Assembly: GCA_033856275.1 (NCBI GenBank)
Contig: JAWVFJ010000016.1
Coordinates: 51,656 to 91,655 of the forward strand
Length of the DNA: 40,000 bases
Source of the DNA: Solirubrobacterales bacterium
Lineage (GTDB): Bacteria; Actinomycetota; Thermoleophilia; Solirubrobacterales; 70-9
Direction of reading: 5' to 3'
The position numbers were made by a program, and so were the translations under genes. Position 1 is the first letter of the stretch, and each line of letters opens with the position of its first letter. The notes beneath the pieces were generated by a model. It saw nothing but the letters and a program-made list of their open reading frames with translations, was not told the origin of the DNA and did no database searches. Of the stretch, positions 10,170-27,986 are shown piece by piece.

Positions 10170-10243
10170 CCAGGAAGAAAATGGACCGTGCGCCCCGTCC
10201 TCCGAGACGAAGTCACCGGGCGTGTCCGTCGCGGTTGGCTCGA

Positions 10244-10337: not shown

Positions 10338-10485
10338 CGTCAACGCCGCCCGCGGCGCACTGACCCCGACGGCCAGCCCCTCGGAACGGGATTCGGCCCC
10401 GCTAGAGCGGATTGCGGGTTACAGGGCACCGCTGATTCCCCGCCTAGCACGGTCCGCGACCATCGTATCCGGCCACGGCGTCCGG

Positions 10486-11722: not shown

Positions 11723-12943
11723 GTGATCGACGTCGACACCTCTTCTTTCTTCGCGATCGTCCTCGTCGCGGCGATCGCCGCGACCCTCGTCGCGATCGCG
11801 CCGAAGGGGATGGCGCCCCCCGTCGTGGTTCTGGAGCTGCTCCTGGGGATCCTGATCGGGCCGCAGGTGCTCGACCTCGCCCAACCCTCCGATTTCATCG
11901 AATTCTTCTCCAACCTCGGGCTCGGCATGCTCTTCTACTTCGCCGGCTACGAGATCGACTTCGAACGGATCAAGGGGGCGCCACTGAAGCTGGGCGCACT
12001 CGGCTGGGCCCTCTCGGTGGCTCTGGCCTACGGCATCGGCGGCATCCTCGCGGCTGCCGGCATCGTCGTCTCCTTCCTCTACACGGGCTCGGCATTGGCG
12101 ACGACCGCGATCGGAACGCTGATCCCGATCCTCAAGGACAACGGTGGCTTGAAGACGCGCTTTGGCACCTACCTGCTGGCGGCCGGTGGCGCCGGCGAGT
12201 TCGGCCCGATCCTGCTCGTCACGCTCGTCCTCACCACCGCCAGCCCCCTCCACGAGGCGGCGATCCTGGTCGCCTTCGTGGTGCTGGCGCTGGGCGTCGC
12301 GCTGGCCTCGGTGCGCCTCGCCTGGCGCGGCTGGCCGGCCTTCGAAAAGACCTTCGAGGCGAGCAGCCAGCTCGCGGTGCGAATCACCGTCGTTCTCGTC
12401 TTCGGTCTCGTGCTGCTGGCCAGCCAGCTCGGCCTCGACGTCCTGCTCGGCGGCTTCGTCGCCGGCATGATCACCCGCGCCGCCCTGCGCGGCCATGAGT
12501 TGCAGGTCTTCGAGTCGAAGCTCACCGCGGTCGGCTTCGGCTTCTTCGTCCCCTTCTTCTTCATCACCAGCGGCCTCGAGTTCAACCTCGACGCCCTCGG
12601 CTCGGTGGAAGCGATTGCCAAGATGGCCCTCTTCCTCGTTCTCTTCCTCGTCGTCCGCGGCACCCCCGCCCTACTTCTTTACCGCCGCGTCCTCAGCGCC
12701 ACTGAGCGCCGTGCGCTCGCCTTCTTCAGCGCCACCGAGCTCCCCCTCGTGGTGGCGATCACCACCATCGCCATCGACGCCGGCAAGATGCGCACCTCCA
12801 CCGCGGCCGGCCTGGTCGGCGCCGCAATGCTCTCGACCCTGATCTACCCCTTCGTCGGCATGGCGCTGCAGAAGCGAGCCATGGCGGAAGAAGACGATGA
12901 GCCTCCCCCAAGCGAACCCGCCGGGGCCCCGGCCCCCGCCTGA
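11723..12943 (+). CDS. Cation:proton antiporter (CPA2 / Na+/H+ exchanger family)
   Basis: 406-aa polytopic ORF. The N-terminus VVLELLLGILIGPQVLDL...FFSNLGLGMLFYFAGYEIDF and the later FFVPFFFITSGLEFNL are characteristic of the Na_H_Exchanger family. Confidence 0.8.
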   Translation: MIDVDTSSFFAIVLVAAIAATLVAIAPKGMAPPVVVLELLLGILIGPQVLDLAQPSDFIEFFSNLGLGMLFYFAGYEIDFERIKGAPLKLGALGWALSVALAYGIGGILAAAGIVVSFLYTGSALATTAIGTLIPILKDNGGLKTRFGTYLLAAGGAGEFGPILLVTLVLTTASPLHEAAILVAFVVLALGVALASVRLAWRGWPAFEKTFEASSQLAVRITVVLVFGLVLLASQLGLDVLLGGFVAGMITRAALRGHELQVFESKLTAVGFGFFVPFFFITSGLEFNLDALGSVEAIAKMALFLVLFLVVRGTPALLLYRRVLSATERRALAFFSATELPLVVAITTIAIDAGKMRTSTAAGLVGAAMLSTLIYPFVGMALQKRAMAEEDDEPPPSEPAGAPAPA

Positions 12944-12980: not shown

Positions 12981-13052
12981 GGGCGCGTAGCTCAGTGGGA
13001 GAGCGCTCGCCTCACACGCGAGAGGTCGCTGGTTCGAACCCAGCCGCGCCCA
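12981..13052 (+). tRNA. tRNA-Val (anticodon CAC)
   Basis: GGGCGCG TA GCTC AGTGGGA GAGC G CTCGC CTCACAC GCGAG AGGTC GCTGG TTCGAAC CCAGC CGCGCCC A folds as a canonical cloverleaf. The anticodon loop CU-CAC-AC gives anticodon CAC. CCA is not encoded. Confidence 0.95.
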
Positions 13053-13138
13053 TCACTCAGATCCGCTGACAAAAAGCCGCCAGTTTCCGGCGATCCGCCC
13101 GTAAGTCGCGTCCGCTTCGCTGCCTACCGTGACAGCGC

Positions 13139-13396
13139 GTGACTGAATCTGAAAGGAACCTCGTACCGAGCCCGGCCCTGGAGCCCCTGCTCTCGATCGA
13201 GGAGGTATCTGAACTCCTGCGGATCTCGGAGAGCGGGATCTACCGATTGCTGCGGCGAAGCCAGTTGGTGAGCGTCAAGGTCGGTGGCCGCACGCTCTTC
13301 GAGCCCGGCGCGATTCGGGCCTTCATCGCCGCCAGTCGTCGGGCCGGCAGCGCTGAGGGAGGTTCCGACATCCCCGACAACAAGGAGGCGGCATGA
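13139..13396 (+). CDS. Excisionase-family (Xis/AlpA-like) helix-turn-helix DNA-binding protein
   Basis: 85-aa [50 protein letters not shown] matches the excisionase-family HTH pattern. Its stop overlaps the queC ATG (ATGA at 13393..13396). Confidence 0.7.
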
Positions 13397-14097
13397 GCCA
13401 GGCAGAGAAAGCAGTCGTCCTCGTCAGCGGCGGCCTCGATTCCGCTACCGCCCTGGCAATGGCCAGGGACGAAGGCTTCGAGCCGTATGCGATCACGTTC
13501 CGATACGGCCAGCGCCACGGGGTCGAGTTGGAGGCCGCCAAGCGGGTGGTCGCGGCCGCAGGGGTCAGCGATCACATCGAGGTCGAGATCGACCTGCGGC
13601 GAATCGGCGGCTCTGCGTTGACCGCCGACATCGACGTGCCCAAGGGCCGTGACCTGGACGAGATGGCCGACGGCATCCCGATCACCTACGTACCGGCGCG
13701 CAACACGGTCTTCCTCTCCTTCGCGCTCGCCTGGGCCGAGGTGCTGGAGGCGGACCACATCTTCATCGGCGTCAACGCCCTCGACTACAGCGGCTATCCC
13801 GACTGCCGGCCGGAGTACGTCAAAGCCTACGAGCAGATGGCGAACCTGGCCACGAAGCGCGGGGTCGAAGGATCTCCGCTGAGGATCCACACGCCGCTGA
13901 TCGACCTGACCAAGGCGGAGATCGTCCGCCTTGGCACCGCACTGGGGGTCGATTACTCGATCACCCGCAGTTGCTATGACCCCTCCCCCGCGGGTGAGGC
14001 GTGCGGCGAGTGCGACTCCTGCCGGCTTCGGCTCAAGGGCTTTGCCGAGAACGGACTCGCCGATCCCGCCCCCTACCAGCTCGAGGCAGCGGCCTGA
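13393..14097 (+). CDS. queC: 7-cyano-7-deazaguanine (preQ0) synthase
   Basis: 234-aa ORF with the PP-loop [14 protein letters not shown], then FRYGQRH, and the C-terminal Zn cluster [24 protein letters not shown]. Confidence 0.95.
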
Positions 14098-14100
14098 GCG

Positions 14101-14850
14101 ATGGCGCTCCTCGCCGAAAAGCGAACCGAGGTCACCACCTTCCCGGTGATCGAGGTCTTCGGCCCGACGATCCAGGGCGAGGGTGCTGAGGCGGGTTTTC
14201 CCTGCCACTTCGTCAGGTTCGGCGGCTGTGACTACCGCTGCTCGTGGTGCGACACGATGTACGCGGTCGATCCTGATGAGGTTCGCCGCAACTCAAGTCG
14301 GCTGACTACCGCTGAGATCACAGAGCGAATCGAACGACTCGACGGCGCGCCGACCTGGGTCGTGCTCAGCGGCGGAAACCCCGCCCTGCACGAGCTGACC
14401 TCCCTCGTCGATGCCCTCCAGGCCCTCGGTCACAAGGTCGCGGTCGAGACCCAGGGGTCGGTCTGGCGGGACTGGCTTGGCACCGTCGACCGCTTGACGA
14501 TCTCGCCGAAGCCGCCCTCCTCCGGCATGGACAGCGAGGCGCACCGCGAGCAGTTCCAGCGATTCATGGCGAAGGCCGTCGAGAGAGGGGCCGACGGCGC
14601 AATTCTGAAGATCGTCTGCTTCGACGAGGTCGACGTGCGCTGGGCCTCGGATCTCTCGGCCTCCTGGCCGGCCTTCGATCTCTACCTATCGGCCGGAACC
14701 CCCGTCCCGGCTCCGGCCGACCTGCGGCAAGCAGTCACCGACCGCTTTCGCTGGCTCTGCGAGCGGACGGCCGGCGACGAGCGGCTGGCGAATGCGCGGG
14801 TCTTGCCGCAGTTGCATGTGCTCGCCTGGGGCGACGCGAGGGGCGTATGA
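14101..14850 (+). CDS. queE: 7-carboxy-7-deazaguanine synthase (radical SAM)
   Basis: 249-aa [43 protein letters not shown] carries the QueE CxxxCxxC-type cluster region. It sits between queC and queD. Confidence 0.9.
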
Positions 14851-15275
14851 GCGAGATAACCATCATCGACGAGCGCGCCGCACAAGCCGCGGGGGCCGTC
14901 ACGACCCGGGCCGAGATATTCCGTGAGTTCACCTTCGAGGCGGCGCACCGGTTGCCCAACGTACCTGAGGGACACAAGTGTGCACGCCTGCATGGTCACT
15001 CCTATCGGGTCGAGGTGAGGGTCAACGGTCAAGTCGGCGAGCAGACCGGTTGGGTCGTCGACTTTGCCGATATCAGCGCTGCTTTCAAGCCGATTCACGC
15101 AGAACTCGACCACCACTATCTGAACGAGGTGCCGGGCCTCGAGAATCCGACCAGCGAGGTCCTTGCCTGCTGGATCTGGGAGCGGTTGGCACCAAGCCTT
15201 TCCGGGCTCGCCGAGATAGTGGTGCGCGAGACCTGCACTTCGGGATGCTCGTACCGGGGGGTGACCGAAGCATGA
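14847..15275 (+). CDS. queD: 6-carboxy-5,6,7,8-tetrahydropterin synthase
   Basis: 142-aa ORF with [28 protein letters not shown] and WVVDFADI (the PTPS/QueD His triad region). It has ATGA overlaps at both ends. Confidence 0.9.
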
Positions 15276-16096
15276 ATCCCGCCGAGCAACTCGCCGCTCT
15301 CGGCGTCGAAGACGTGCAGGCGACGCGAGACGAGCGCGGTGTGCTCATCGACGAAGTGGGCATCGACGGGCTCTCATACCCGATCGCCGTGGAAGGTCGC
15401 GACGGCGACCGCCAGCAAACCGCGGCCGAGGTGAGCATGGCGGTGGAACTCGCCCACGATTCGCGTGGCGTTCACATGAGCCGCTTCGTCGAAGTGCTCG
15501 ATGCCCATGCCGCCGGCATGGGTCCCGATGGTTTTCGCGAGATGGTCAAGGCGACTCGGTACCGGCTCGGATCCGACTTCGCTCGGGTGAAGTTGGGCTT
15601 TCCGTACTTCCTGCGCCGCCGAGCGCCGACCAGCGAAATGCCCTCGATGGTCCGCTACGAGTGCACGCTCACCGGCGAATCGCGCGGCGAGGAGATCGCG
15701 ACCGAGGTCGGTGTACGGGTTGCCGTGACCAGCCTTTGTCCCTGCAGCAAGGAGATCAGCGACTACGGCGCCCACAACCAGCGTGGCTATGTCGAGATCT
15801 CCGCGACAAGCCCCTGGTCCGGTGGCGAAGCGTCCGGCATCTGGTTCGAGGACCTGGTCGACGTCGCCGAGGCGGCGGCGTCGGCGCCGATCTATCCCCT
15901 GCTCAAGCGCAGCGACGAGCGCACGGTGACGATGCAGGCCTACGACAAGCCCGCCTTTGTGGAGGACATCGTCAGGGACATCGTTGTGGCCTTGCGCACC
16001 GACGTTCGGGTTGCCAAAGCGCGCGTCCGCGCCTCCAACCAGGAGAGCATCCACGACCACAACGCGGTCGCCCAACTGCAGTGGGAGCGCCGGTGA
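15272..16096 (+). CDS. folE2: GTP cyclohydrolase I type 2 (FolE2/MptA family)
   Basis: From ATG 15272: ...[17 protein letters not shown]...[16 protein letters not shown]...[27 protein letters not shown]... These blocks ([20 protein letters not shown]) are typical of FolE2. The track ORF from 14978 is an over-extension overlapping queD. Confidence 0.8.
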
Positions 16097-16755
16097 GCGA
16101 GCGGCGCTCCATCCTGGCGATCACATCCTGCACCGGCCTGAAGACAATCGGGGACGGCGGCGCCAGCCTCCCCGCCGAGCGGCTTTACGCCGGCGAGCAA
16201 CACCGCCGGTTGATGCAGGGCGTCGACTATTTCCGGGCCTCGTCCTCTGGGCATGAACTCGACCTGCGGATCCTCTCGGCCGGTCACGGTGTCGTCGCCG
16301 GCGACCATCGGCTTCGGCACTACGACTCCTCCTTCGCCGCACTGGGCAAGGCGGAGATCGACGAGCGAGCCGCCGAGCTCGGCGTCCCAGGGCAGATCGA
16401 GCAGTTGCTCTCGCGCCCATACGCCCTCGTCCTCGTACTGCTGGGCGACGATTACATGCGCGCTGCCGCGATCGACAGCGACACCCAATTCTCAAGCCCG
16501 ACCATCGTCTTCTGCGGCGAGCGACTTGCCCGACGCTTGCAGGGAGTGCCTTCTCTTAAGCTCGTGCCGGCCGACAAGCGGCAGACACGTCGCTTTGCCT
16601 GTGGCCTCGTCGGCTTGAAGGGGGAGTTGGGGGGACGGCTCTTGCGCCTGCTCGCCGATGATCCCGGCCTCCTCCCCAAGGTTTCCGACCCCGGACTCGA
16701 CCTGCTCGCCATGCTCGACGCGGCAAGCGTCCGCCCACTCGGGGCCGCCGCGTGA
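16093..16755 (+). CDS. Hypothetical protein coupled between folE2 and dpdA; weak YaaA/DUF328-like pattern, possible DpdC-type accessory enzyme (tentative)
   Basis: The GTG at 16093 overlaps the folE2 stop (GTGA) and its own stop overlaps the dpdA GTG (16752). The 220-aa product is [17 protein letters not shown]...PAERLYAGEQHRRL...LRILSAGHGVVAGDHRLRHYDSSF. The LRILS-G-G...L..Y block recalls YaaA/DUF328. This is by-eye resemblance only. Confidence 0.5.
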   Translation: MSERRSILAITSCTGLKTIGDGGASLPAERLYAGEQHRRLMQGVDYFRASSSGHELDLRILSAGHGVVAGDHRLRHYDSSFAALGKAEIDERAAELGVPGQIEQLLSRPYALVLVLLGDDYMRAAAIDSDTQFSSPTIVFCGERLARRLQGVPSLKLVPADKRQTRRFACGLVGLKGELGGRLLRLLADDPGLLPKVSDPGLDLLAMLDAASVRPLGAAA

Positions 16756-17984
16756 AGTTCTATTTCCCCGACAGCCAGGATCAGATCGACCCGAGCTTCC
16801 CCTTCGAGAGCGAAGTGCGGTCGCCGCTGCGCGTACGTCAGCGCGACGACCGCTACGCGCACGAGTTCCTCAAGCCCCCGCCCTACGAAGGCCTGCTGGT
16901 CTCCAAGGCGATGATCGACGGCAACGGAGGGGCCGGTCGCTACAGCGCCCAGCAGCGGCAGCGCTTCTTCCGCGAAGGCGTCAGGGAGTTCTTTCGCCTC
17001 GACCAGTCGGCCGGACCGCGCATCGAGACTCTGGGTGACTGCGGCGCCTTCGGCTACATCGACGAGCCGCTGCCGCCGTACAGCACCGACCAGGTGATCG
17101 ACTTCTACGAGCAGGCCCGCTTCGACGCCGGCGTCTCAGTCGACCACGTGATCCCGGTCTTCGACGACGACGTGGATTCCTCCTGGAAGGACCGCTACAC
17201 GTTGACGTTGGGTCTGGCTGAGGAGTTCCTCGACCGCCACCGTGAGCGGGACTGCCGGTTCGAACCCGTAGGCGTGGCCCAGGGCTGGAGCGCGGCCACC
17301 TACGCCAACGCGGTGGGGCACCTGCAGAAACTGGGCTACGAGCGAATCGCGATCGGCGGCCTCGTCCCGCTCAAGACCGATGAGATCCTCCGCGTCCTGG
17401 CGGCGATAGACGAGATTCGCCATCCCCATACGAAACTCCACCTGTTTGGGGTGACCCGCTGTGAGCACGTTCCCCGCTTCAAGGGCCACGGCGTGACCAG
17501 CTTCGACAGTACCTCGCCGTTTCGGCGCGCTTTCAAAGACGGCACGGACAACTACTACGTGCTCGATCGCGCCTTCGTCGCCCTGCGCGTGCCGCAGGTC
17601 GAGGGCAACGCGAAGCTGCAGGCGCGAATCGGCGCGGGAGAGATCGACCAGGGGAAAGCTCGCAAGCTCGAGCAGGAGGCCCTGGCCGCGCTGCGCGCTT
17701 TCGACCGCGGCAAGGAAAGCCTCGAGAAAGCCCTGGAAAAGCTCTGCGACTACCAGGACCTCCACGACGAAGGACACGCCCGGCACGAGCAGTACCGTGA
17801 AACGCTCGCCGACGCACCTTGGCGCGAATGCAAATGCAATGTCTGCAGCAGCGCCGGCATCGAGGTTGTCCTCTTCCGGGGCAGTGAGCGCAACAAGCGG
17901 CGGGGCTTCCACAACCTCCACGTATTCGCTCAGCGCCTCGCACAGGAACTACAGCCCCAAGACACCGCGCTCGCAGCGGCATAA
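16752..17984 (+). CDS. dpdA: DpdA-type tRNA-guanine-transglycosylase paralog (7-deazaguanine DNA transglycosylase)
   Basis: 410-aa ORF with N-terminus MKFYFPDSQDQIDPSFPF and TIM-barrel TGT-like blocks (GDCGAFGY, IAIGGLVPLK, LHLFGV). The TGT zinc motif CKCNVC...HNLH is present. It is embedded in a preQ0 biosynthesis operon next to a DGQHR protein. Confidence 0.85.
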   Translation: MKFYFPDSQDQIDPSFPFESEVRSPLRVRQRDDRYAHEFLKPPPYEGLLVSKAMIDGNGGAGRYSAQQRQRFFREGVREFFRLDQSAGPRIETLGDCGAFGYIDEPLPPYSTDQVIDFYEQARFDAGVSVDHVIPVFDDDVDSSWKDRYTLTLGLAEEFLDRHRERDCRFEPVGVAQGWSAATYANAVGHLQKLGYERIAIGGLVPLKTDEILRVLAAIDEIRHPHTKLHLFGVTRCEHVPRFKGHGVTSFDSTSPFRRAFKDGTDNYYVLDRAFVALRVPQVEGNAKLQARIGAGEIDQGKARKLEQEALAALRAFDRGKESLEKALEKLCDYQDLHDEGHARHEQYRETLADAPWRECKCNVCSSAGIEVVLFRGSERNKRRGFHNLHVFAQRLAQELQPQDTALAAA

Positions 17985-17993
17985 GGAGAAGAA

Positions 17994-19130
17994 GTGGCCA
18001 AATACGAGATGCGCGTCCCAGCTCTGGCCGTCCGGCAGGGAGAGAGGTTGCTCTACAGCTTCGCGATCGACGGCAAGACGTTGCCGCTGTTCACGACGGT
18101 CTCCCGCGTTCACCGCGACGAGGATCGCAAGCTGGGCGGTTACCAGCGGCCGGAGGCCCTCGCCCACATCGCGGCGATCAAGCGCTACCTCGAGACCGCC
18201 GATGCGGTGCTGCCCAACGCGCTCGTCATCGCCTTCGACGGGCGTGTCAAGTTCAAGAAGAGCCCGGGCGGTGGCGGTGGTGTCACCACGCAGGGCGAAA
18301 TCGTCATCCCCGTGGACGAGAAGCTCGCCGACGAGGACAAGCCGGGCTGGATTGTCGATGGCCAGCAGCGCTCGGCGGCGATCCGCGAAGCGAACGTCGA
18401 GGGATTCCCCGTCTTCGTCACTGCGTTCGTCACCGACAGCGTCGAGGAGCAACGCTCGCAGTTCATCCTGGTCAACTCGACCAAGCCCCTGCCCAAGGGG
18501 TTGATCTATGAGTTGCTGCCGGCGACTCCCGAAGCCGACCTCCCGGTCGCCCTGCTGCGTCGGCGCTATCCCGCCCTCCTGCTGGAGCGACTCAACTTCG
18601 ACGACGACTCGCCGATGCGTTCCCGGATCCGCACCCCAACGACGGCCGGTGGCACGATCAAGGACAACTCGATCCTCAAGATGCTCTCGGCCAGCATCGA
18701 GGACGGCGCGCTCTACCAGTACTTCGACAGCGGGACCGGTAGCGGCGATACAGAGGCGATGCTCGAACTGCTGAAGAACTTCTGGACCGCCGTCGAAGAG
18801 TGCTTCCCAGACGAGTGGGAGGAGTCGCCCCGGCGCTCCCGCCTCGTCCACGGCGTCGGCATCGCCAGCCTGGGCTGCCTGATGGACGAGATCACCTATG
18901 TGAGCGGCCCGGGACGCGTCCCCACCAGCGACGAGTTCGCCGAGGAGCTGCGGCTGATCAAAGGTCAGTGCCACTGGACGAAAGGCAACTGGAAGTTTGC
19001 CGGCGGCGACAGTTGCGCCTGGAACGAACTGCAGAACACGCCCAAAGACATCCTCCGCCTCAGCGACCACCTGCTGCGCCTGTATCGAGAGGCTCGGGGA
19101 TCGACCGAAGAGCAACGTCAGGCTGCCTGA
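17994..19130 (+). CDS. dpdB: DGQHR-domain (DndB-like, ParB superfamily) protein, DpdB-type
   Basis: GTG start preceded by AAGGAG (17983..17988). 378-aa ORF: ALAVRQGERLLYSFAIDGKTL...LGGYQRPEALAHIAAIKRYLE...LPNALVIAF...GWIVDGQQRSAAI...SQFILVNSTKPL, the DGQHR/DndB architecture. Confidence 0.8.
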   Translation: MAKYEMRVPALAVRQGERLLYSFAIDGKTLPLFTTVSRVHRDEDRKLGGYQRPEALAHIAAIKRYLETADAVLPNALVIAFDGRVKFKKSPGGGGGVTTQGEIVIPVDEKLADEDKPGWIVDGQQRSAAIREANVEGFPVFVTAFVTDSVEEQRSQFILVNSTKPLPKGLIYELLPATPEADLPVALLRRRYPALLLERLNFDDDSPMRSRIRTPTTAGGTIKDNSILKMLSASIEDGALYQYFDSGTGSGDTEAMLELLKNFWTAVEECFPDEWEESPRRSRLVHGVGIASLGCLMDEITYVSGPGRVPTSDEFAEELRLIKGQCHWTKGNWKFAGGDSCAWNELQNTPKDILRLSDHLLRLYREARGSTEEQRQAA

Positions 19131-19149
19131 GCCGCCCTCCGATGTCACG

Positions 19150-19491
19150 GTGAACCGATCCGAAGCGAACGAGTCTCTCCGTGCCCTGCACAAACGAGCG
19201 CATGCCGAGCTCCAACAGCTCAAGGACCGCCAGCACCGCCTTGAGCGCCTGATCGAGTTCATCGACGAGTACGGGGCGGGGAAACCCAAGCGCGCGCGGA
19301 AGAGACGACAGGTAAGAGCGAGGTCGCCTTCGCTGCTCGAGGTGATCGGCGACCGGCCTGGCGTGCGCAAGAGCATGCTCGCGATGGTCATGGACCGCTC
19401 GCCGGAGGAGGTTGGCGCGGAACTCGAATACCTAGAGCGAGAAGGCAGCATCCGCCGCGACGGATTGGGGTGGTCAAGGGCCGACCAATAG
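19150..19491 (+). CDS. Small coiled-coil plus winged-helix-like protein (start uncertain)
   Basis: Read in the track ORF frame (18997..19491) from the first start after the dpdB stop, GTG 19150. Sequence: VNRSEANESLRALHKRAHAELQQLKDRQHRLERLIEF...SLLEVIGDRPGVRKSMLAMVMDRSPEEVGAELEYLEREGSIRRDG, which looks like a MarR/ArsR-style wHTH. No obvious SD. Confidence 0.45.
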   Translation: MNRSEANESLRALHKRAHAELQQLKDRQHRLERLIEFIDEYGAGKPKRARKRRQVRARSPSLLEVIGDRPGVRKSMLAMVMDRSPEEVGAELEYLEREGSIRRDGLGWSRADQ

Positions 19492-19563
19492 CGGCGTAGC
19501 CATTGTTTTGGATCGTGCCTATCTATGTGCTATTTTTTTGGCACACGGATAGAAGGAGGCGCG

Positions 19564-20823
19564 ATGTCAACCCATCTCGAAGAGCACAAAGCCGTTCCCC
19601 TCGAGGCCCTTTTCCTCGACGCGAACAACCCTCGCCTGGCGCCGGAGAATCCGCCGGGATACGAAGATGCCGACGCCCTCTTCGATCCCGAGGTTCAAAA
19701 GGAACTGCAGGAGCGGGCCAAGGAGTCGTTCGATCTCGACAGCCTCGAGGCGGCAATGGTCGGTCAGGGATGGCTGCCGATCGATTCGATCCTGGTATGG
19801 GAGCACCCTGACGAACCGGGAAAGTTCGTCGTGGTCGAGGGCAACCGCAGACTGGCGACGTTGCGGCTGCGCATTCTGCCGCGTCTCGCCAAAGCCAAAA
19901 CCAAGCTGGAAAAAATGGGGGGAGGCGGCCGGAGCAAGCGCTACACGGCAGGCGACGTGGAGCAGCAAGAAGCGGAAATCGCCCGGCTCGAGCGCCTGCA
20001 GGACGAAACCGATCCGCTGGCGGTCCTGAAGGTCACGGCCGCCACGCCGACGGAGCTCGACCAGACCCTGAACCGCATCCTCGCCGTGCGCCACATCACC
20101 GGCCCCAAGGAATGGGGTAACTACGCGGAGGACATCTGGCTACTGCGGCGCTACCGCGACCTCTTCGACCGGCGATTCCCCGGGGAGCAGCTGCGCTGGG
20201 AGCCGTCGACGATCGGTCAGGTGGCGGACGAGGCTTCCCTGTCTCCGGTCATGACCAAGCGCCATCTGCGGGCGGCGAGCGCGTTTGGACGCTTCCGCGA
20301 CGACTTCGAAGATGACCTGCCCAACGAAGAAAGCTTCGAAGAGGGCGACTACTACCTCTTCGAGCTGATCGCGCAGCAGCCGTTCGCACGCGAGAAGTTC
20401 GGCCTCGGCGAGGATCTCCTGGGCCTGCCCGAGGACAAGGCGCAGATCCTCTTCGACTGGGTCTTCAAGGAGCCCCGGCCCCAGAAGGCCGCCGACAACC
20501 CAAACGTCTTCTACCGCCACGAGAACATCAGGCTCTGGGGCCAGATGAAGAAATACGACGAGAGCAACGGCACCACGTTCGCCGATCGCTTCGACGTCAC
20601 CGATCACAAGAACGCGCCGTCGATGCACTCGGTCGAGGCCGACTTCCACTCCCACAAGGCCCGCAAGACCCCGATCGACGTCCTCGACTCCCTCCTCACT
20701 CAGCTCAAAGAACTGGATGCGGAGACGATGATGGCCGAGGGCGAGTTCCTCCACAAGCAGCTGGAAATGCTCGAGACGCGAATCGAGAAGCTGCTGCGGA
20801 TGGTCGAGGCGGCGGAAGGCTGA
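19564..20823 (+). CDS. ParB/Srx N-terminal-domain protein (second ParB-like protein of the island)
   Basis: ATG 19564 lies 5 nt after a strong SD GAAGGAGG (19552..19559), following an AT-rich gap. Sequence: MSTHLEEHKAVPLEALFLDANNPRL...FVVVEGNRRLATLRL (ParB-type GxRR box), then about 300 aa with no recognisable domain. The track start at 19525 is likely an over-extension. Confidence 0.65.
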   Translation: MSTHLEEHKAVPLEALFLDANNPRLAPENPPGYEDADALFDPEVQKELQERAKESFDLDSLEAAMVGQGWLPIDSILVWEHPDEPGKFVVVEGNRRLATLRLRILPRLAKAKTKLEKMGGGGRSKRYTAGDVEQQEAEIARLERLQDETDPLAVLKVTAATPTELDQTLNRILAVRHITGPKEWGNYAEDIWLLRRYRDLFDRRFPGEQLRWEPSTIGQVADEASLSPVMTKRHLRAASAFGRFRDDFEDDLPNEESFEEGDYYLFELIAQQPFAREKFGLGEDLLGLPEDKAQILFDWVFKEPRPQKAADNPNVFYRHENIRLWGQMKKYDESNGTTFADRFDVTDHKNAPSMHSVEADFHSHKARKTPIDVLDSLLTQLKELDAETMMAEGEFLHKQLEMLETRIEKLLRMVEAAEG

Positions 20824-20826
20824 CGG

Positions 20827-23229
20827 ATGGTCCGGCGCCGTATCGACGACCCTGAGATCCGCCCGCTGATCGACCGCTTGGCGACCCTCTTCCTCCGCGA
20901 GGGAAGCGTCAACCGGGTGCAGCAACTGTTGGTGGCGCAGCTCGCCGACGACAGGAGCGAGGGATACGTCCACTCCAACCGGCTGCACGCTCTGCTCAGC
21001 GAGGACCCGGCGAAGTCCGTCAACCCGAGCACTCTCCGCACCATCGAGACCGCGGTCGAGCGGCTCGACCCCGAGGGGGAGGGGAGCATCCCGGCATCCG
21101 CCGCAGCGTTGAAGGACGAGGTGGCGGGCCGCTGGCCTGGGACGGTGGCCAGCGTGCCGGGCGGAACCTCCGCGGAGCGAATCCGCCATCTTGCCGCGGA
21201 GATCAACGTCCCGCCGGGGGTCGTCAGCCTGCTGCTCGACGCCGGCACCGCCGATGCCGGCGACCGTTCTGCCGCTCGCCGAGACACCACGATCGCAACC
21301 GTTCGCAGCCCGGATTGGTCATTCCAGGACACCGCCTACGAGCGCTGTGTGAGGGCCCTTGCCGGCGGTCCGAATGAAAAGGTCGGCCTGGTCCTACCCA
21401 CTGGCGGCGGCAAGACCCGGCTGGCCATTCGCATCATGCTCCAGGTGCTCGACCGAGCCGAGTCCGAGAACCCCGTCGTTGTCTGGGTGACGCATCGTAA
21501 GCAGCTTCGAACCCAGGCCACGCGCGAGCTCCAACGCGCGATCAACCTGGGAACTCCGGACCTACCGGCTCACGCTACGGCTCTGCTGGCGGGCCAGGTC
21601 GAGATCTGCATGGTCTCGAAGCTCGCCGAGACGCTGGATCGTCACGCCGGACGGGTGGCGCTGGTCGTCGTCGACGAGGCCCACCACGCCGCGGCCGAGT
21701 CGTATAGGCCGATCTTCGACCGGACTCCGCAGCGGGGGCTCTTCCTCACGGCGACCCCCAACCGGACCGACTCGATGCCGATCGGCGTCGACCAGATCGC
21801 CTATGCGACTACCTACCGCGATCTGTTCGACAGAGGGGTGATCGTCGAGCCCGTCCTCGACGAGCTGACCATCGACGGATTCGACTGGAATCTGGCCGAG
21901 CGGGTCGAGGAGCTCGCCGCCTATCTTCTCGACGAGGCGGGCGACCGTTTCCTGAAGACCCTGGTCGTCGTCTCGCGGGTTGAGAACGCCGAGCGCCTCC
22001 ACGAGGCCCTCCTCCGACTGCTCTCCTCCGACCATGTCTTGAACGAGGAGGACATCGGGTTCGCGCACGGCAGCGGCAGTTCGACCGGCCAGGGCATCCA
22101 GGACTTCCTCGACGAGTTCCAGGCACGCCCGCGCGGGATCTTGATCGCAACCAGCCAACTACTGGGAGAGGGCTTCGACGATCCGAGTGTCGACAGCACA
22201 GTCATCACCTACCCCACGCAGAGCGTTCTCGACCTGATGCAGGTCGCCGGGCGCTGCATGAGGTACGCCCCGGGCAAGCACAAGGCTTTCGTCGTCCAAG
22301 TGCGAGATTCCGCGCTCACGTACCACTGGGAGCAGGGATGGCTCTACCAGGACATTTCCGACGCGCTCCGCCCGCGCCTCGAAACCGTGCCCTTTACCGG
22401 CGGCAGGGATCTGGAAACCACCATCGCGGACATCCTTACCTCCCACAACGTCTCGCGGCCGGTGCGCAAAGCGGCGCTCGAGGCCGCGTCGAACCTCGAC
22501 GTCAACGACCGATTCTCATTGCTCCTCACGGGCCTTCCCTACGGGGGTCCCGCTGACCGATTCGACGTCGACGCCCAGTGGGGGGCCGTTTTCGTGACCC
22601 CCGAGGAGCGCGATCTGTTCGTGCGGGTGTTCAACGGCTATTCGGAGCGTTACACCGAGATCAACGACAAGAAGGCGTTTCTCGAGCAGTACATCTCGGT
22701 CGACCACCAGCCCGGTAGCCGCTGGCGCCGGTACATGGACATGCTCGCGGCCATGGAGGCAGCCGGAACCGAACGCCGCGGTGAAACTTTTGCCCTCGCC
22801 TCATCGCGGCCGAACAACACGGAGACTGGAACGACATGGCTTACATACATCACCTTCGTCTACGAACCGGCCCTGCCGATCGATCTCGAGGCCTTTCTGG
22901 CAGACGCCGTCAACCGCAAGGAAGTTGCCGACATGTTTCTCGACGATCCCACTGCATGGAGCCTCGCGGTGAAGGCGCCCCTGCCGCTGGACGGCAGCCT
23001 TGCCGCGCTTGTCTCCGACGCCGGGGCCGATTGGGTCGAGCGGGAACGCAAAGCACTCAGAAGCCATCTGGGGTCTGCGGACCAGCGCCAGACCTTCGGT
23101 GCGCTGGCAGCCTGGCGGACGGAACTCGACGGCGAATCCCCTCTGCCTCAATTCATGCTCGACCGCTTCGAGTTGCTGCTTGCCGACGAGGGATGGACGC
23201 ACTTCGCGCTTTCGTTGGACAATTCTTAG
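20827..23229 (+). CDS. DEAH-box SF2 helicase (ResIII + Helicase_C core) with unassigned N- and C-terminal domains
   Basis: 800-aa ORF with motif I LVLPTGGGKTRLA, motif II VVDEAHHAAA, motif III LTATPNR, and motifs V/VI ILIATSQLLGEGFDDP and QVAGRCMR. The roughly 170-aa N-terminal and roughly 300-aa C-terminal regions are unrecognised. It starts 4 nt after the ParB-like stop. Confidence 0.8.
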   Translation: MVRRRIDDPEIRPLIDRLATLFLREGSVNRVQQLLVAQLADDRSEGYVHSNRLHALLSEDPAKSVNPSTLRTIETAVERLDPEGEGSIPASAAALKDEVAGRWPGTVASVPGGTSAERIRHLAAEINVPPGVVSLLLDAGTADAGDRSAARRDTTIATVRSPDWSFQDTAYERCVRALAGGPNEKVGLVLPTGGGKTRLAIRIMLQVLDRAESENPVVVWVTHRKQLRTQATRELQRAINLGTPDLPAHATALLAGQVEICMVSKLAETLDRHAGRVALVVVDEAHHAAAESYRPIFDRTPQRGLFLTATPNRTDSMPIGVDQIAYATTYRDLFDRGVIVEPVLDELTIDGFDWNLAERVEELAAYLLDEAGDRFLKTLVVVSRVENAERLHEALLRLLSSDHVLNEEDIGFAHGSGSSTGQGIQDFLDEFQARPRGILIATSQLLGEGFDDPSVDSTVITYPTQSVLDLMQVAGRCMRYAPGKHKAFVVQVRDSALTYHWEQGWLYQDISDALRPRLETVPFTGGRDLETTIADILTSHNVSRPVRKAALEAASNLDVNDRFSLLLTGLPYGGPADRFDVDAQWGAVFVTPEERDLFVRVFNGYSERYTEINDKKAFLEQYISVDHQPGSRWRRYMDMLAAMEAAGTERRGETFALASSRPNNTETGTTWLTYITFVYEPALPIDLEAFLADAVNRKEVADMFLDDPTAWSLAVKAPLPLDGSLAALVSDAGADWVERERKALRSHLGSADQRQTFGALAAWRTELDGESPLPQFMLDRFELLLADEGWTHFALSLDNS

Positions 23230-23443
23230 GTCTGGCGGGTATTCGCGAGGCTCCATCCAGCCGGGTCCCGTCCTGATTGAACTTCCGGATCAGGATTCGC
23301 CCTCGCCAAGCCGGGTTCGCCGGCCCGTGCGAAATGCCTATTTGCATCGAGTGCGTAGGGTTCCACGATTTAAAATGCAACGCTTAAGCGGGTAATTAAG
23401 TGTTTCTATCCTTAGTACGGCTCTTTAATGGTAGCTTCGGCAA

Positions 23444-24454
23444 GTGGGTCTCTTCCGCAAGGACCGAGAGGCGCGTTCAAAGACCAAGGTGCCGGCACCG
23501 AACTCGGTGGACGCCGACAGGCAGAAGCATGAAGACGCGGCCGCTGCGCCTCTTCCGGCTCAGCTCCTTTGGCTCATCGATGCGCCGATGTTCATCGACG
23601 AGCACCGGGTCGAGGCTTTCTACGACGCCATTCTTCGACCCGACTTCGAAGGCGCCAGCCTGACGCTCTCCGAGTCGCTGACCAAAGGCCGAACCTTCAG
23701 TGGCGGTATGACGGTGGGCGCGGCGTTGCCATGGCTGGTCAAAGCGGAGGGAAAGGCAGAAGCGGCAAGCAGCAGGCAGAAGGCGCGCGGTCAGGAGGCG
23801 ACGCTGCACCGCGTGATCAATCCCTACCGCCATCTACTCGCCCTCGCGATTCACTACGCGACCCAGCAAGAGTTTCAGCACCGACTCGTCTTCGCCCAAC
23901 CCACCACAGCGAAAGACGCCGCCGCAACTGACGTCTCATCGACCTGGACAACGGATTCCTTCAGCCGCGAGTCGCCCCGGGCGATCGTGGTCCTGGACCT
24001 GCCAGAGGGGACACCATTGATTCCACTGGCGGCCGAGACCACGGAGGGCAAGGTCGTGCCGGTGTACAAGCAACTTGCCGCGCGCCTGCAGAGGCCGGGA
24101 CAGCGAGCATTGCCCGAGTTCGTCAGGCGTGACAAGCCCAACTACCTGCAGGGCCAGCGCGACTACTGGCGTTGGTTCGCCGAGTTCTTCGATCCCCAAG
24201 TGGCGATTGAGGTCGTCGAGGAGGCTTCGGAGTCCGGTCGGTTTGCTTGGATCGCCTTTAGGCTTCCGGTCGGGTCCGTCGACCCCCTCCAGGCTGAGAC
24301 GTTTCTCCATCTCCACATCTCACCGCGAGGGGAATACGACACCGGGGTCGTCGCCTACAACTTCATCGCGCGCGGTTACGAGCACGGCGTGAGGATCGTT
24401 GGAACATTGAAGTCCGATCCCGACCTCAACGTCCTCGCCGTGTTCGAGCGCTAG
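23444..24454 (+). CDS. Hypothetical protein (no recognisable domain)
   Basis: 336-aa ORF (GTG start; alternative ATG at 23588) after a visibly AT-rich 200-bp gap. G/C-rich third codon positions support coding. No motif recognised by eye. Confidence 0.5.
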   Translation: MGLFRKDREARSKTKVPAPNSVDADRQKHEDAAAAPLPAQLLWLIDAPMFIDEHRVEAFYDAILRPDFEGASLTLSESLTKGRTFSGGMTVGAALPWLVKAEGKAEAASSRQKARGQEATLHRVINPYRHLLALAIHYATQQEFQHRLVFAQPTTAKDAAATDVSSTWTTDSFSRESPRAIVVLDLPEGTPLIPLAAETTEGKVVPVYKQLAARLQRPGQRALPEFVRRDKPNYLQGQRDYWRWFAEFFDPQVAIEVVEEASESGRFAWIAFRLPVGSVDPLQAETFLHLHISPRGEYDTGVVAYNFIARGYEHGVRIVGTLKSDPDLNVLAVFER

Positions 24455-25510
24455 TTAGTAGTACCGGGTCAGCTCAAGCGGCAGGGGAAACTCGACCGCC
24501 TGGATGCAGGCGCCGTAGAACGGGCACCGCAACGCGGTCGCCGGGTCGAGGCAGACGGGATCGATGTCGGTGCAATTGACGCGGTTGAGCCAGAATTTGT
24601 TGTCGAGGATGGCTCCGGAGAGCCCGGTGCGCTCGGCGATCGCGACGAAGGCGACGAGGGCCAGCCTCCGCAACTCCAGCGCCTCCTCGCCCGACAGCAG
24701 ACGGCTCGCCTTCAGCTTCTGCTCCAGTCGCGGCTCCGGGCGGAGCATTCCTTGGCGCAGGGCGTGTCTCAACAGGTGGTAGTCGATCGCCGGCAGTGGC
24801 TCGTCCCTGAACTCGAAGACCCCGCTGCCCGAAAGCAAGATCGCGTTGAGCATGGTCAGCTTGAAGATCGGGTCGTCGAACGCCCGGAATCCCCGTGACA
24901 ACTCGGCGAATCGCACGAGTGAGCCCCCCGTCTCCTCGAGCAGGTTGAGAAACTCCCCATTCCACTCGGCCAGCAGGTGTCGACCGAGGTCCCGCAGGTT
25001 GGCGAGACGATCGTCCGCCCCTATCGCAAGCGGGTTGAGCCCGGTGTCGTCGCTGAAGATCGCATCGAAGTCGCTCTCGCTCATCGTCGCCAGGAAGCCG
25101 GCGTCGAGGATCCGGCCCCCACCCCGGTCCAACTCACGACGCAGCGCCCTCCACATGTACATCGCGCCGCGGTACGTCGTGCCGTCCAGCGTGCCCACCG
25201 CGGGAGCCATGCTCTCCCCTTCGAGTCGCCAAAAGCGGAAGTTGATCGAATTTCCGACGGCGAAGAACTGCGAGCGCTCAGACCTGTTCCCAGCGACGTT
25301 CCAGAAGAGGTCGTCATCCCAGCTCGCGGGTTCGAACTCTCGAAAGTCGGGCGTGCTCGCGATTTGCCGCGCAATCGCTTCCACCTGGCGCCAATCGATC
25401 TCGGCCAGGCCGCCAGTCGATTGATCGATTCCGAGAGCGATGCTAAGTCCGGCAGTGCTCAAGCCGGAGCTCTCGGTGCCGACAAACCTGGTCGCCATTG
25501 CATTGCCCAT
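24455..25510 (-). CDS. Queuosine-salvage family protein (DUF2419 / Qng1-like N-glycosidase fold)
   Basis: 351-aa ORF. FFAVGNSINFRFW, YRGAMYMWRAL, IFKLTMLNAILL, AIDYHLLRHALRQGMLRP...LLSGEEALELRRLALVAFVAI and the terminal TRYY follow the block order I recall for the Q_salvage family. By-eye assignment only. Confidence 0.6.
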   Translation of the reverse strand: MGNAMATRFVGTESSGLSTAGLSIALGIDQSTGGLAEIDWRQVEAIARQIASTPDFREFEPASWDDDLFWNVAGNRSERSQFFAVGNSINFRFWRLEGESMAPAVGTLDGTTYRGAMYMWRALRRELDRGGGRILDAGFLATMSESDFDAIFSDDTGLNPLAIGADDRLANLRDLGRHLLAEWNGEFLNLLEETGGSLVRFAELSRGFRAFDDPIFKLTMLNAILLSGSGVFEFRDEPLPAIDYHLLRHALRQGMLRPEPRLEQKLKASRLLSGEEALELRRLALVAFVAIAERTGLSGAILDNKFWLNRVNCTDIDPVCLDPATALRCPFYGACIQAVEFPLPLELTRYY

Positions 25511-26733: not shown

Positions 26734-27017
26734 CTCGTCGGCGATAGGGCGTCGACCTTCTCAGCCAGTTCGAAGTCGGCGCCGGTGAGGCCGCCCTCGG
26801 AATGGGTGGAAATCGTCACCGTCACCGTGTCCCAGGAGATCTCGACGTCGGGATGGTGGCCCATCGCCTCAGCCGGCTCGACCAGACTCGAAACGAACTT
26901 GACCGAGCCGACGAAATCGCCGCAGCCGAAGCGCTTCGAAATCGCTTTGCCCTGGAGCTCCCAGCCATCTCGCTGGGCCAGCTTCGCCTCGATCTCTTCA
27001 TCGCTCAGCAGTGCCAT
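26730..27017 (-). CDS. phhB: Pterin-4-alpha-carbinolamine dehydratase
   Basis: 95-aa ORF. LSDEEIEAKLAQRDGWELQGKAISKRF...AEAMGHHPDVEISWDTVTVTISTHSEGGLT is the PCD/DCoH signature (HHP...W). Confidence 0.85.
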   Translation of the reverse strand: MALLSDEEIEAKLAQRDGWELQGKAISKRFGCGDFVGSVKFVSSLVEPAEAMGHHPDVEISWDTVTVTISTHSEGGLTGADFELAEKVDALSPTS

Positions 27018-27203
27018 CTACGCGACCCCATCGCTTTCTGGGCCCGTTTGCGGCGCGCGATCCGAGCACGCCGTAGGCCTCGAATTTCTGGTCAGTGTAG
27101 AGCTGGTCGATCGTCGGATTGTTGGGAAAGCGTGGTCGGCTCCCATGGTGCGGTGCTCGCTTCAGATCGTCACTCGATTCAACTAAGCTGCTCGAAGCGA
27201 GCG

Positions 27204-27986
27204 ATGCCCAGCTCCACTCCCATCCTTTGGCACATCACTGTCTCGCACTACAGCGAGAAGGCGCGCTGGGCGCTCGACCACAAGCAGATGCCGCACAGGC
27301 GCCGCGCGGTCTCGATCCCCGGCCTTCACATCCCGGCCTCGATGCTGCTCACGCGCGGCGCCAGCCACACCTTTCCGGTGCTCGAACTCGAGGGACGGGC
27401 GATCGGCGACTCGACCGAGATCATCGCCGCGCTGGAGGAGCGCCATCCGGAGCGGCCGCTCTACCCGGCCGATCCCGAGCAGCGCCATCGCGCGCTCGAG
27501 CTGGAGGACTTCTTCGATGAGGAACTGGGGCCCCACCTCCGCCTGCTCGCCTTCCATGAGTTGGGCAAGGACCCAGAGCGCTTCGAGGCGGTGATCGCAC
27601 GCTCCACGCCCGGCCCCGTCGCGAGCCTCGGCAGCGGCGCAGTCACCTACGCCCGCACCTACACCGGCCTGCGCTTCGGCGTTCGCAGCGAGGAGGCCGC
27701 CGAAGTCGCCCGCGGCAAGATCCTGGCGGCGATGGACCGCCTCGACGCCGAGATCGGCCCAAGCGGATACCTGGTCGGCGACTCCTTCAGCGTCGCCGAC
27801 CTCACTGCCGCGGCCCTCTTCTACCCGCTGGTCCTCCCCAACGAGGGGCCGCTGACCGTAGATGAACCGCCCCCAGCCGGAATGGAGAGCTTCCGCGCGC
27901 CGCTGCGGGATCGCCCTGGCTACCGCTGGGTCGAGGAGATGTTCCGCCGGCATCGCAGACCGGGCGCGATCGCAGTGGCTGCCTAG
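27204..27986 (+). CDS. Glutathione S-transferase family protein
   Basis: From ATG 27204: MPSSTPILWHITVSHYSEKARWALDHK...FPVLELEGRAIGDSTEIIAALEERHPERPLYP, a thioredoxin-like GST N-domain, followed by a helical C-domain. The track ORF from 26802 is an over-extension. Confidence 0.75.
   Translation: MPSSTPILWHITVSHYSEKARWALDHKQMPHRRRAVSIPGLHIPASMLLTRGASHTFPVLELEGRAIGDSTEIIAALEERHPERPLYPADPEQRHRALELEDFFDEELGPHLRLLAFHELGKDPERFEAVIARSTPGPVASLGSGAVTYARTYTGLRFGVRSEEAAEVARGKILAAMDRLDAEIGPSGYLVGDSFSVADLTAAALFYPLVLPNEGPLTVDEPPPAGMESFRAPLRDRPGYRWVEEMFRRHRRPGAIAVAA

Follow-up and report, generated by a model that had tools for sequence, protein, structure and literature searches.

Gene content of the cluster and its modification half

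We analyzed a 40,000-nucleotide (nt) stretch of DNA from a Solirubrobacterales bacterium (assembly GCA_033856275.1, contig JAWVFJ010000016.1, positions 51,656 to 91,655; referred to as the window, with positions counted from its first letter). The window holds a cluster of genes of the Dpd type, which replaces guanines in DNA by 7-deazaguanines, and the array ends with genes for a ParB/KorB-like protein and a superfamily 2 (SF2) DEAH helicase that are predicted to form an effector pair. The modification half of the cluster belongs to the Dpd family; the system as a whole is not canonical Dpd, because dpdD–K were looked for and not found.

A tRNA-Val(CAC) gene (12981..13052, plus strand; ARAGORN, Rfam 72.7 bits) forms the upstream boundary of the cluster. 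The first protein-coding gene starts at 13139, just past the tRNA gene as an earlier note on this DNA had claimed, with a spacing of 86 nt and not the 87 nt given there. From 13139 to the helicase stop at 23229, eleven plus-strand genes are tightly packed in the order HTH_17, QueC, QueE, QueD, FolE2, 220-amino acid (aa) protein, DpdA, DpdB, small protein, ParB-like protein, and DEAH helicase, followed by a convergent pair in which a 336-aa protein (plus strand) faces a Qng1-like protein (minus strand). The 4-nt overlaps reported earlier were all found at their positions (ATGA at 13393, 14847, and 15272; GTGA at 16093 and 16752), and the remaining same-strand gaps up to 23229 measure 3 to 72 nt. 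Because of these five overlaps and short gaps, the eleven-gene array is, as far as the sequence goes, consistent with a single operon. A scan for promoters and terminators was uninformative in the high-GC DNA of the window.

DpdA (16752..17984, plus strand), the DNA-guanine transglycosylase, scored 553.7 bits against NF041059 (cut-off 200) and 559.6 bits against the PADLOC DpdA model, and it aligned end to end with the crystal structure of the Salmonella Montevideo enzyme (7UI4, E 1.2e-114 across residues 1-400). The catalytic aspartates are kept as the equivalents of D95, D130, and D256 (in GDCGAF, VDH, and FDST), as are the base-stacking Phe and the CxCxxC...H zinc site. Models of the tRNA-guanine transglycosylase (TGT) type matched weakly, at 16-24 bits (tRNA Tgt 16, archaeal TgtA 23), and the TGT paralog of the earlier note is thus a DpdA and not a tRNA-acting Tgt. 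The motifs quoted for this protein and its neighbor (MKFYFPDSQDQIDPSF, CKCNVC...H, and IVDGQQR) are all present. In the Q179 region (GVAQGW), Gln replaces the base-contacting His181 of S. Montevideo DpdA; we take Gln to be the residue of tRNA TGTs at this position.

The dpdB gene (17994..19130, plus strand) begins 9 nt past dpdA. Its product, the DGQHR/ParB-superfamily ATPase needed by DpdA, contains the DGQQR motif and scored 469.5 bits against NF041060 (cut-off 300) and 223.9 bits against TIGR03187, which identifies the DGQHR/DndB-type protein noted earlier as a DpdB ortholog. By sequence comparison, DpdA and DpdB are each a true ortholog of the corresponding Salmonella enzyme. What DpdA, DpdB, and DpdC do in vitro has been published, and the S. 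Montevideo proteins modify DNA without further factors (PMC10164549). On this basis, the cluster very probably exchanges some guanines for 7-deazaguanine in the DNA of its carrier, a soil actinobacterium.

The complete gene set from GTP to 7-cyano-7-deazaguanine (preQ0) claimed for the cluster was recovered by curated cut-offs, with all four genes on the plus strand. These genes encode QueC (preQ0 synthase, 13393..14097; PF06508, 256.8 bits), the radical SAM enzyme QueE (7-carboxy-7-deazaguanine synthase, 14101..14850; TIGR03365, 251.9 bits with a cut-off of 206), QueD (6-carboxytetrahydropterin synthase, 14847..15275; PTPS PF01242, 130.8 bits), and FolE2 (GTP cyclohydrolase IB, 15272..16096; PF02649, 280.5 bits). 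Ahead of them lies a gene for an 85-aa DNA-binding protein of the HTH_17/excisionase family (13139..13396, plus strand; PF12728, 42.6 bits; TIGR01764, 29.9 bits), which also opens the array in the related loci L031, L033, and L116. In L123 (1-672) the HTH_17 domain is fused to QueC, and this fusion speaks for a first gene that belongs to the system, as a regulator or DNA-binding subunit, and against an island excisionase. The description as an Xis-type helix-turn-helix protein therefore holds for the family (TIGR01764), whereas the role of island excisionase is disfavored by the lack of an integrase in the window; the protein is probably an operon regulator.

The gene between folE2 and dpdA (16093..16755, plus strand) encodes a 220-aa protein that had been listed as an unknown and can now be related to the N-terminal part of DpdC. 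Its score against Pfam DUF6884, the family that holds DpdC (PMC12235509), was 25.8 bits, under the cut-off of 30, and several PADLOC DpdC models matched its N-terminal part only (E 2e-4 to 6e-3); genuine DpdCs reach 241-345 bits with the same models. BLASTP aligned the protein with the positional DpdC of the actinobacterial locus L004 at 30% identity over 114 aa (E 3e-7). The short 220-aa form sits before DpdA also in L031, L033, L116, L117, L123, and L052, and in Hymenobacter sp. BT559 (L121) a DUF6884-like domain is fused to DpdA. Because of the weak DUF6884/DpdC matches, the DpdC position, and the L121 fusion, we call it a short DpdC-related protein, which may convert preQ0 to 7-amido-7-deazaguanine (ADG). 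The L121 fusion of DUF6884/DpdC-like and DpdA parts (700 aa; 1342-3444, minus strand) adjoins a 504-aa DndB-family protein, QueE, QueC, QueD, and QueF and lies ∼5 kb from a ParB-like/helicase pair.

None of the genes downstream of dpdB reached threshold with an NCBIfam or PADLOC Dpd model (the best was DpdE at 23.8 bits, with a cut-off of 500), and tblastn with DpdD, DpdK, and DpdJ of L004 gave no match in the window. Genuine actinobacterial DpdD, DpdK, and DpdJ, annotated directly in L004 and L016, reached 182 to 1707 bits with NCBIfam. Divergent forms of DpdD–K were ruled out by these searches. The earlier statements that the partner set is unlike dpdD–K and that it includes neither a PLD-type nuclease nor multiple helicases were upheld, with one helicase and no PLD domain recognized. 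Our comparison sample comprised 30 DpdA loci from species-representative genomes; many have the arrangement DpdC-DpdB-DpdA-DpdB, and about half carry DpdD, DpdK, and DpdJ within 10 kb. Of the modification modules that lack the pair, the closest is that of a Solirubrobacteraceae metagenome-assembled genome (MAG; L010), which is accompanied by a DpdE gene instead (458 bits). Two dpdB genes flank dpdA in canonical actinobacterial loci (L004 8847-12345, L016 8871-12419, and most of L001-L029), and the window-type locus has the downstream copy only. Variation among dpd islands, some of which may lack the restriction operon, has been described, and in about 1.9 million genomes GATOR-GC found 37,198 such islands (PMC12235509).

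The ParB-like/helicase pair and its genomic neighborhoods

The ParB-like gene (19564..20823, plus strand) was assigned a most likely start at 19564 in place of the 19525 given earlier, with an ATG preceded by AGGAGG and a product of 419 aa as in its homologs. The AlphaFold2 model of this product (predicted local distance difference test score, pLDDT, 84) has an N-terminal α/β domain of the ParB/Srx type, a helix-turn-helix-like middle, and a helical C-terminal part that ends in a long helix. The best Foldseek matches were KorB (8qa9, E 2e-4) and Caulobacter ParB (6t1f, E 9e-3), in structures that span both the nucleotide-binding domain and the helix-turn-helix that binds DNA; weak matches were to sulfiredoxin and to BrxU, a GmrSD enzyme. 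The motif VVEGNRR is invariant among the homologs and, we presume, resembles the GxRR nucleotide-binding box of ParB. Searches of Pfam (ParBc, DGQHR, and DUF262) and NCBIfam gave no match and a profile search of the PDB was empty, so that the description as a second ParB/Srx protein is borne out for the fold and not for membership in a curated sequence family.

The DEAH helicase predicted by the earlier note (20827..23229, plus strand; 800 aa) was confirmed as an SF2 helicase/translocase, with ResIII (59.7 bits), DEAD, and Helicase_C all above cut-offs. Its Walker A (GGGKT), DEAH, TATP, and QxxGRxxR motifs are invariant in 20 homologs. In the AlphaFold2 model (pLDDT 82), the motor core is most like restriction-enzyme translocases, with resemblance to RadD, type I HsdR, SauUSI, and the type ISP enzyme LlaBIII, and is accompanied by a conserved N-terminal helical domain and a conserved 300-aa C-terminal domain. 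When the complete model was searched with Foldseek, motor-core matches prevailed. For the C-terminus (residues 495-800), a PDB profile search (best E-value 0.89) and per-sequence Pfam scans returned nothing credible. Below E 0.001, and with short and partial hits included, the ParB-like protein had 185 homolog hits and the helicase 362, with the same organisms in both lists; full-length homologs have roughly 420 and 800 aa, respectively. No match that would point to a phage origin of the pair was found in 50,697 phage records or IMG/VR.

Wherever the contig extends far enough, a helicase homolog adjoins every full-length ParB-like homolog (≥40% identity), usually at a spacing of 0-4 nt, and the two genes are a strictly coupled module. 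Among the loci whose flanks are usable, about half show dpd/preQ0 genes next to the pair, in permuted orders, in several DpdA lineages, and in two phyla. With duplicates removed, eleven distinct loci (the window and ten others) have dpdA/dpdB and/or preQ0 genes no more than 10 kb away from the pair. The dpd genes are upstream of the pair in the window, L031, L033, L116, and L123; the pair is upstream of queC...dpdB in L117, L047, and L046; and the two blocks are on opposite strands in L039, L052, and L121 (Hymenobacter). In L117, the pair is followed on the same strand by queC-queE-queD-folE2-DUF6884-dpdA-dpdB, with a gap of ∼110 nt between helicase and queC, and in L039 and L047 a long DpdC occurs together with the pair. 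Six more short contigs have dpd-associated genes directly beside the ParB-like gene, namely queC or other preQ0 genes (L044, L056, L070, and L074), genes for the 220-aa protein and DpdA (L045), or the 336-aa/Qng1-like gene pair (L048).

The partner set that had been read from the window is thus real, with the same order in at least five other loci and permuted orders in more, and because it recurs in this way, "undescribed variant" is a fair reading. No description of the pair was found in the searchable literature, which did not cover the founding Dpd papers of 2016 and 2018. Because DpdA is rare, the recurrent and rearranged adjacency is hard to explain by chance or by defense-island clustering alone. 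In a neighbor-joining tree, the pair-linked DpdAs fall in at least four places, interleaved with DpdAs partnered by DpdD/K/J or DpdE, a placement that is indicative only, the tree having no bootstrap values.

The pair was also found beside genes for phosphorothioation. By tblastn of plasmids, full-length counterparts of the ParB-like protein (38% identity) and of the helicase (36%) were found on two Ti plasmids of Agrobacterium larrymoorei, the conjugative plasmid pTiAF3.44 (L126; NZ_CP072169.1, 7368-17271) and, in the same arrangement, NZ_CP039694.1. The order on these plasmids is helicase and ParB-like gene, abutting dndE-D-C-B and dndA. More distant ParB-like relatives stand beside dnd genes in L059, L062, and L091. 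Because of its dpd and dnd neighborhoods, the wider family is tied to DNA-marking systems of two unrelated chemistries. In L062 (630-4704) the distant relative is accompanied by a metallo-β-lactamase-fold protein, and L091 (5465-11935) has a helicase, a ParB-like protein, two unknowns, and a PLD-domain protein, followed by dndEDCB; the candidate nucleases in these two loci are hints of a larger set of ParB-centered effector modules.

Other neighbors of the pair differ from locus to locus. A gene for a 505-522-aa GHKL-ATPase (HATPase_c) adjoins the helicase gene in L031 (13680-15203), L033 (13648-15216, minus strand), L116 (12388-13905, minus strand), and also L037, and the L031 protein, the sole copy scanned directly, gave a weak NucS-like endonuclease match in its C-terminus. 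The window has just 214 nt at that place and no such gene. Pairs that stand alone are followed by SRA_ScoMcrA-domain genes in L119 (13676-15079; Mycobacterium asiaticum) and L122 (12991-13803; a Mesorhizobium MAG), one of them with an HNH domain. Such type IV restriction-like readers are frequent in Dnd neighborhoods as well. M. asiaticum has its solo pair on HG964938 (L119) and a canonical Dpd locus on HG964939, and the consecutive accession numbers suggest that both belong to one assembly. Relatives of the ParB-like protein at ∼35% identity (L066-L069) had no detectable helicase homolog in their contigs and were treated as a separate family; in L069, the sole one with annotated neighbors, the gene downstream encodes a tetratricopeptide repeat protein.

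Accessory genes and surroundings of the array

The protein of the first convergent gene (23444..24454, plus strand) has 336 aa as an open reading frame (ORF) and a conserved core of ∼295 aa. An exhaustive search gave 343 representative relatives. Pfam, NCBIfam, PADLOC, PHROGs, and a 16-sequence profile run against the PDB were all empty, and its designation as a 336-aa unknown stands, with no known family to which it could be assigned.

The gene that faces it (24455..25510, minus strand) encodes a 351-aa Qng1/DUF2419-like N-glycosylase, in agreement with the earlier prediction of a convergent Qng1-like protein (Q_salvage PF10343, 49.6 bits with a cut-off of 25). A six-homolog profile matched S. 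thermophilus Qng1 (StQng1; 7uk3) with E 8e-13 and aligned D243 with D231, the catalytic Asp of the helix-hairpin-helix motif, the key residues of StQng1 being taken from the structure paper (PMC9881137). The alignment is confident up to about residue 285. Judged by motif and spacing, the Asn in NFRFW, D303/W307, and the final Tyr (...TRYY) have counterparts too, in a part of the reference outside the alignment. Four invariant cysteines near the C-terminus (C313, C320, C329, and C335) form a C-x6-C-x8-C-x5-C motif. This motif presumably resembles the iron-sulfur loops of EndoIII/MutY-type glycosylases. As far as we saw, the structure paper on Qng1 (PMC9881137) does not mention a motif of this kind. 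It is a reasonable guess from the sequence that the glycosylase recovers the preQ0 or ADG base from deoxynucleotides of DNA turnover, and it may also act on DNA itself.

The 336-aa gene occurs together with the Qng1-like gene in L031, L033, L116, L048, L123, and L124, and it is found inside the canonical Mesorhizobium Dpd locus L125, where it ends the series DpdC-B-A-B-QueE-D-C and faces DpdD-K-J. The two genes are therefore not specific to the variant and occur in canonical Dpd loci too (the 336-aa gene in L124 and L125), so that their inclusion in a distinctive partner set is not maintained. For the same reason, we place them on the modification or biosynthesis side.

Between dpdB and the pair lies a gene for a small conserved protein of ∼113 aa (most likely 19150-19491, plus strand), with a GTG start 19 nt past the dpdB stop. 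L031, L033, and L116 have gene calls of 112-116 aa in this position (39-64% identity by tblastn). The protein has no Pfam, NCBIfam, PADLOC, or PHROG match, and the winged helix-turn-helix label that it had been given found no hidden Markov model support in the family searches.

The description of the locus as a tRNA-Val-adjacent island was correct for the adjacency. The other marks of an island were looked for and were not found: there is no integrase in the 40-kb window and no second copy of the tRNA-Val 3′ end anywhere in it, and an integrated mobile island was rejected on these grounds. The G+C content of the window is ∼67% and merely drops from about 0.68 to 0.62-0.65 over 19-25 kb. A tRNA-Val(CAC) gene also precedes the cluster in L033 and L037; the site between the Na+/H+ exchanger and tRNA-Val genes on one side and the glyoxalase and glutathione S-transferase (GST) genes on the other is occupied in the relatives L033 and L116 too; and the L031 cluster lies in a different genomic context.

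The flanking genes are ordinary, and the remaining large ORFs in the window have housekeeping functions. Upstream are genes for DnaX, the signal recognition particle (SRP) RNA, an ABC-2 permease, and the Na+/H+ exchanger (11723-12943), and downstream are those for the glyoxalase, the GST, a GGDEF protein, an alcohol dehydrogenase, an HD-domain protein, a major facilitator superfamily transporter, and an oligopeptide ABC transporter. The SRP RNA is of the bacterial large type (10186-10452, minus strand; Rfam RF01854, 156 bits). The GST ORF (26802-27986, plus strand) has 394 aa with GST domains from residue 142, compared with 255-266 aa called in relatives; judged from its sequence, its true start is probably ∼140 codons downstream of the ORF start. 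A 45-nt palindromic element occurs in two intergenic copies 61 nt apart (29459-29503 and 29520-29564; GGTGCAACGCGTTGTCC...GGACAACGCGTTGCACC), directly upstream of the alcohol dehydrogenase gene.

Proposed role of the pair and comparison with known systems

With somewhat more confidence than doubt, we propose that the cluster carries out Dpd-type marking of self DNA, using a standard modification half and a nonstandard effector half. FolE2, QueD, QueE, and QueC would convert GTP to preQ0; DpdA, aided by ATP hydrolysis by DpdB, would exchange selected guanines in DNA for preQ0; and the short DUF6884 protein may, with less certainty, hydrate the nitrile to yield ADG. The ParB/KorB-like protein and the SF2 DEAH translocase would stand in for DpdD–K. 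The former, as a nucleotide-dependent DNA-binding or sensing subunit, would load on DNA, and the helicase would next track along it. The deazaguanine marks of the host would stop or release the complex, and unmarked incoming DNA would be attacked or blocked. The 336-aa and Qng1-like proteins would be accessories of the modification or biosynthesis side.

On the basis of gene neighborhoods, the pair is most likely an alternative effector (restriction) module of DNA-marking systems. By analogy, its helicase may act like DndFGH, whose translocation is halted by the phosphorothioate mark, and its ParB-like protein like the ParB-superfamily NTPase domains of DndI and SspE, which sense marks (PMC11662687). 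A bolder version, which we put forward only tentatively, is that the pair is a portable, nuclease-free mark reader that serves the chemically unrelated systems of 7-deazaguanine marking here and phosphorothioate marking in Agrobacterium plasmids and several metagenomic loci. A nucleotide-gated clamp could, for instance, recruit a translocase that strips unmarked DNA or stalls replication on it.

Several points weigh against an effector role of the pair. Its function is predicted throughout from neighborhood statistics and fold resemblance, and searches with the ParB-like protein, the C-terminal part of the helicase, and the 336-aa protein revealed no nuclease domain. Homologs of the ParB-like, helicase, 336-aa, and Qng1-like proteins were found in 0 of the 30 representative DpdA loci, and the pair is therefore a minority partner. 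The additional GHKL-ATPase/NucS-like gene of close relatives implies that the set in the window may be incomplete. Finally, dpd genes are missing from the available flank (up to 10 kb) in seven to ten pair loci, about four in ten of the loci whose flanks are usable; these are from Micromonospora parathelypteridis, Lentzea sp., M. asiaticum, the Mesorhizobium MAG, L041, and L065, and, with shorter flanks, L036, L040, L042, and L054.

These solo loci fit a different explanation, which we regard as unlikely, that the pair is a self-contained, mark-independent defense system co-located by island clustering and that the window holds a modification-only Dpd module beside it. The solo pair of M. asiaticum (L119) does lie in a defense island, among N6 methylase, UvrD plus PD-(D/E)xK, HEPN, and SRA-domain genes, the one in Lentzea (L118) is near a GmrSD_N gene, and Dpd islands that lack a restriction operon have already been reported (PMC12235509). 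An independent system would not, however, be expected to show dpd/preQ0 adjacency in eleven distinct loci and at least three gene orders, often with operon-like gaps (3 nt in the window, and the ∼110 nt between helicase and queC in L117). No other defense family recurs beside the pair in this way, and the dnd adjacency in Agrobacterium, L059, L062, and L091 speaks for a specific association with DNA-marking systems.

The absence of a recognizable nuclease in the pair would fit a further alternative, a role in the modification machinery itself, in which a loader and a translocase would spread DpdA/DpdB and replace the second DpdB, with no restriction function. This would account for the presence of one DpdB and a second ParB-fold protein in the window, where canonical actinobacterial loci have two DpdBs. 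We judge it quite improbable, since the pair also occurs without nearby dpd genes and beside dnd genes, whose chemistry is unrelated to transglycosylation, L039 and L047 carry a long DpdC together with the pair, and DpdA, DpdB, and DpdC of S. Montevideo need no further factors in vitro (PMC10164549). That the locus is an ordinary Dpd cluster with divergent DpdD–K, or serves deazapurine synthesis for tRNA or secondary metabolites, is scarcely credible: preQ0 genes are also used in queuosine and toyocamycin-type pathways (PMC5699537), but the DpdA and DpdB equivalog scores lie far above cut-offs with tRNA Tgt models at 16-24 bits, and no DpdD–K model or homolog matched, whereas the true actinobacterial DpdD, DpdK, and DpdJ gave 182 to 1707 bits with the same models.

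If the cluster is a Dpd-type marking system with a two-gene effector, as we favor, annotation rules that require dpdD–K would miss the variant or call it modification-only, and its frequency would therefore be underestimated. To our knowledge, canonical Dpd restriction needs eight proteins, and we know of no nuclease that has been pinned down among them. A two-gene replacement that recurs beside DpdA/B would offer a far simpler route to the reading of 7-deazaguanine marks, and the same pair beside dnd genes suggests a general effector module for DNA-marking systems. The 336-aa family and the Qng1-like glycosylase are new candidates for base recycling or the control of modification. The portable, nuclease-free reader, if true, would represent a new class of restriction module and the first defense role for a KorB/ParB-type clamp.

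The nearest known system is Dpd (dpdA–K) of S. Montevideo and Kineococcus radiotolerans, which is said to have been described by Thiaville in 2016, Yuan in 2018, and Gedara in 2023. Its restriction proteins are DpdD, the SNF2 protein DpdE, the helicases DpdF and DpdJ, DpdG, DpdH, DpdI, and the PLD nuclease DpdK. The window shares with Dpd the DpdA/DpdB orthologs with their catalytic residues, a DUF6884 protein upstream of dpdA, clustered preQ0 genes, and the logic of a modification operon combined with helicase-containing partner genes. It differs in lacking DpdD, DpdE, DpdF, DpdG, DpdH, DpdI, DpdJ, and DpdK, with one helicase in place of three and no PLD nuclease, and in having a DUF6884 protein of 220 aa compared with the ∼300-aa DpdC. 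The putative effector of the window is the ParB/KorB-like protein with one SF2 helicase, a pair that exists outside Dpd loci as well.

Phosphorothioate systems (DndABCDE with DndFGH, PbeABCD, or DndI; SspABCD with SspE or SspFGH) likewise combine one marking module with alternative effectors, in which a DUF262 ParB-superfamily NTPase reads the mark (DndI and SspE) or the mark controls translocation (DndFGH). The mark predicted for the window is a base exchange and not backbone sulfur, and its ParB-like protein has GNRR in place of DGQQR and no HNH domain. In PbeABCD, PbeA is an HKD nuclease fused to an SF2 helicase, and the set includes a CxC ABC ATPase and the DndE-like PbeD (PMC10853773); the window helicase matches PbeA models over the motor core only (residues 190-314), and neither a PLD domain nor an ABC ATPase is present. 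Residues 21-127 of the ParB-like protein match positions 4-99 of the 466-position A model of PD-Lambda-5 in PADLOC (E 1e-11), and no model of the B component matched any scanned cluster product.

Individual proteins show the same mixture of likeness and difference. The ParB-like protein shares with the CTP-dependent clamps ParB and KorB the predicted N-terminal domain, the helix-turn-helix fold, and the GxRR motif; in contrast to them, it has no detectable sequence similarity, carries an additional 200-aa helical C-terminal part, and is obligately paired with a helicase, with no partition ATPase. The Qng1-like protein appears to have kept the catalytic Asp, the proton-relay Asn, the base-binding Asp/Trp pair, and the C-terminal Tyr of Qng1/QNG1 (DUF2419), the queuosine-5′-monophosphate glycosylase. 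Its identity to that enzyme is low, it adds the four-cysteine motif, and it is linked to DNA deazaguanine genes and not to queuine salvage for tRNA.

Recombination of a deazaguanine modification module with other effectors is known from BRIGADE of haloarchaea (PMC12458937) and from BREX-related capture systems with a TGT (PMC12839542), and Dnd neighborhoods have been reviewed (PMC10853773). The effectors in those hybrids are YprA-family helicases with PLD or PD-(D/E)xK nucleases, or HerA/FtsK with BREX proteins, and none has a pair of a ParB-like protein and an 800-aa SF2 helicase. Variation of dpd islands and the existence of other hybrids were thus already known, and what appears new here, judged by the searchable literature, is the occurrence of the ParB-like/helicase pair beside dpd genes.

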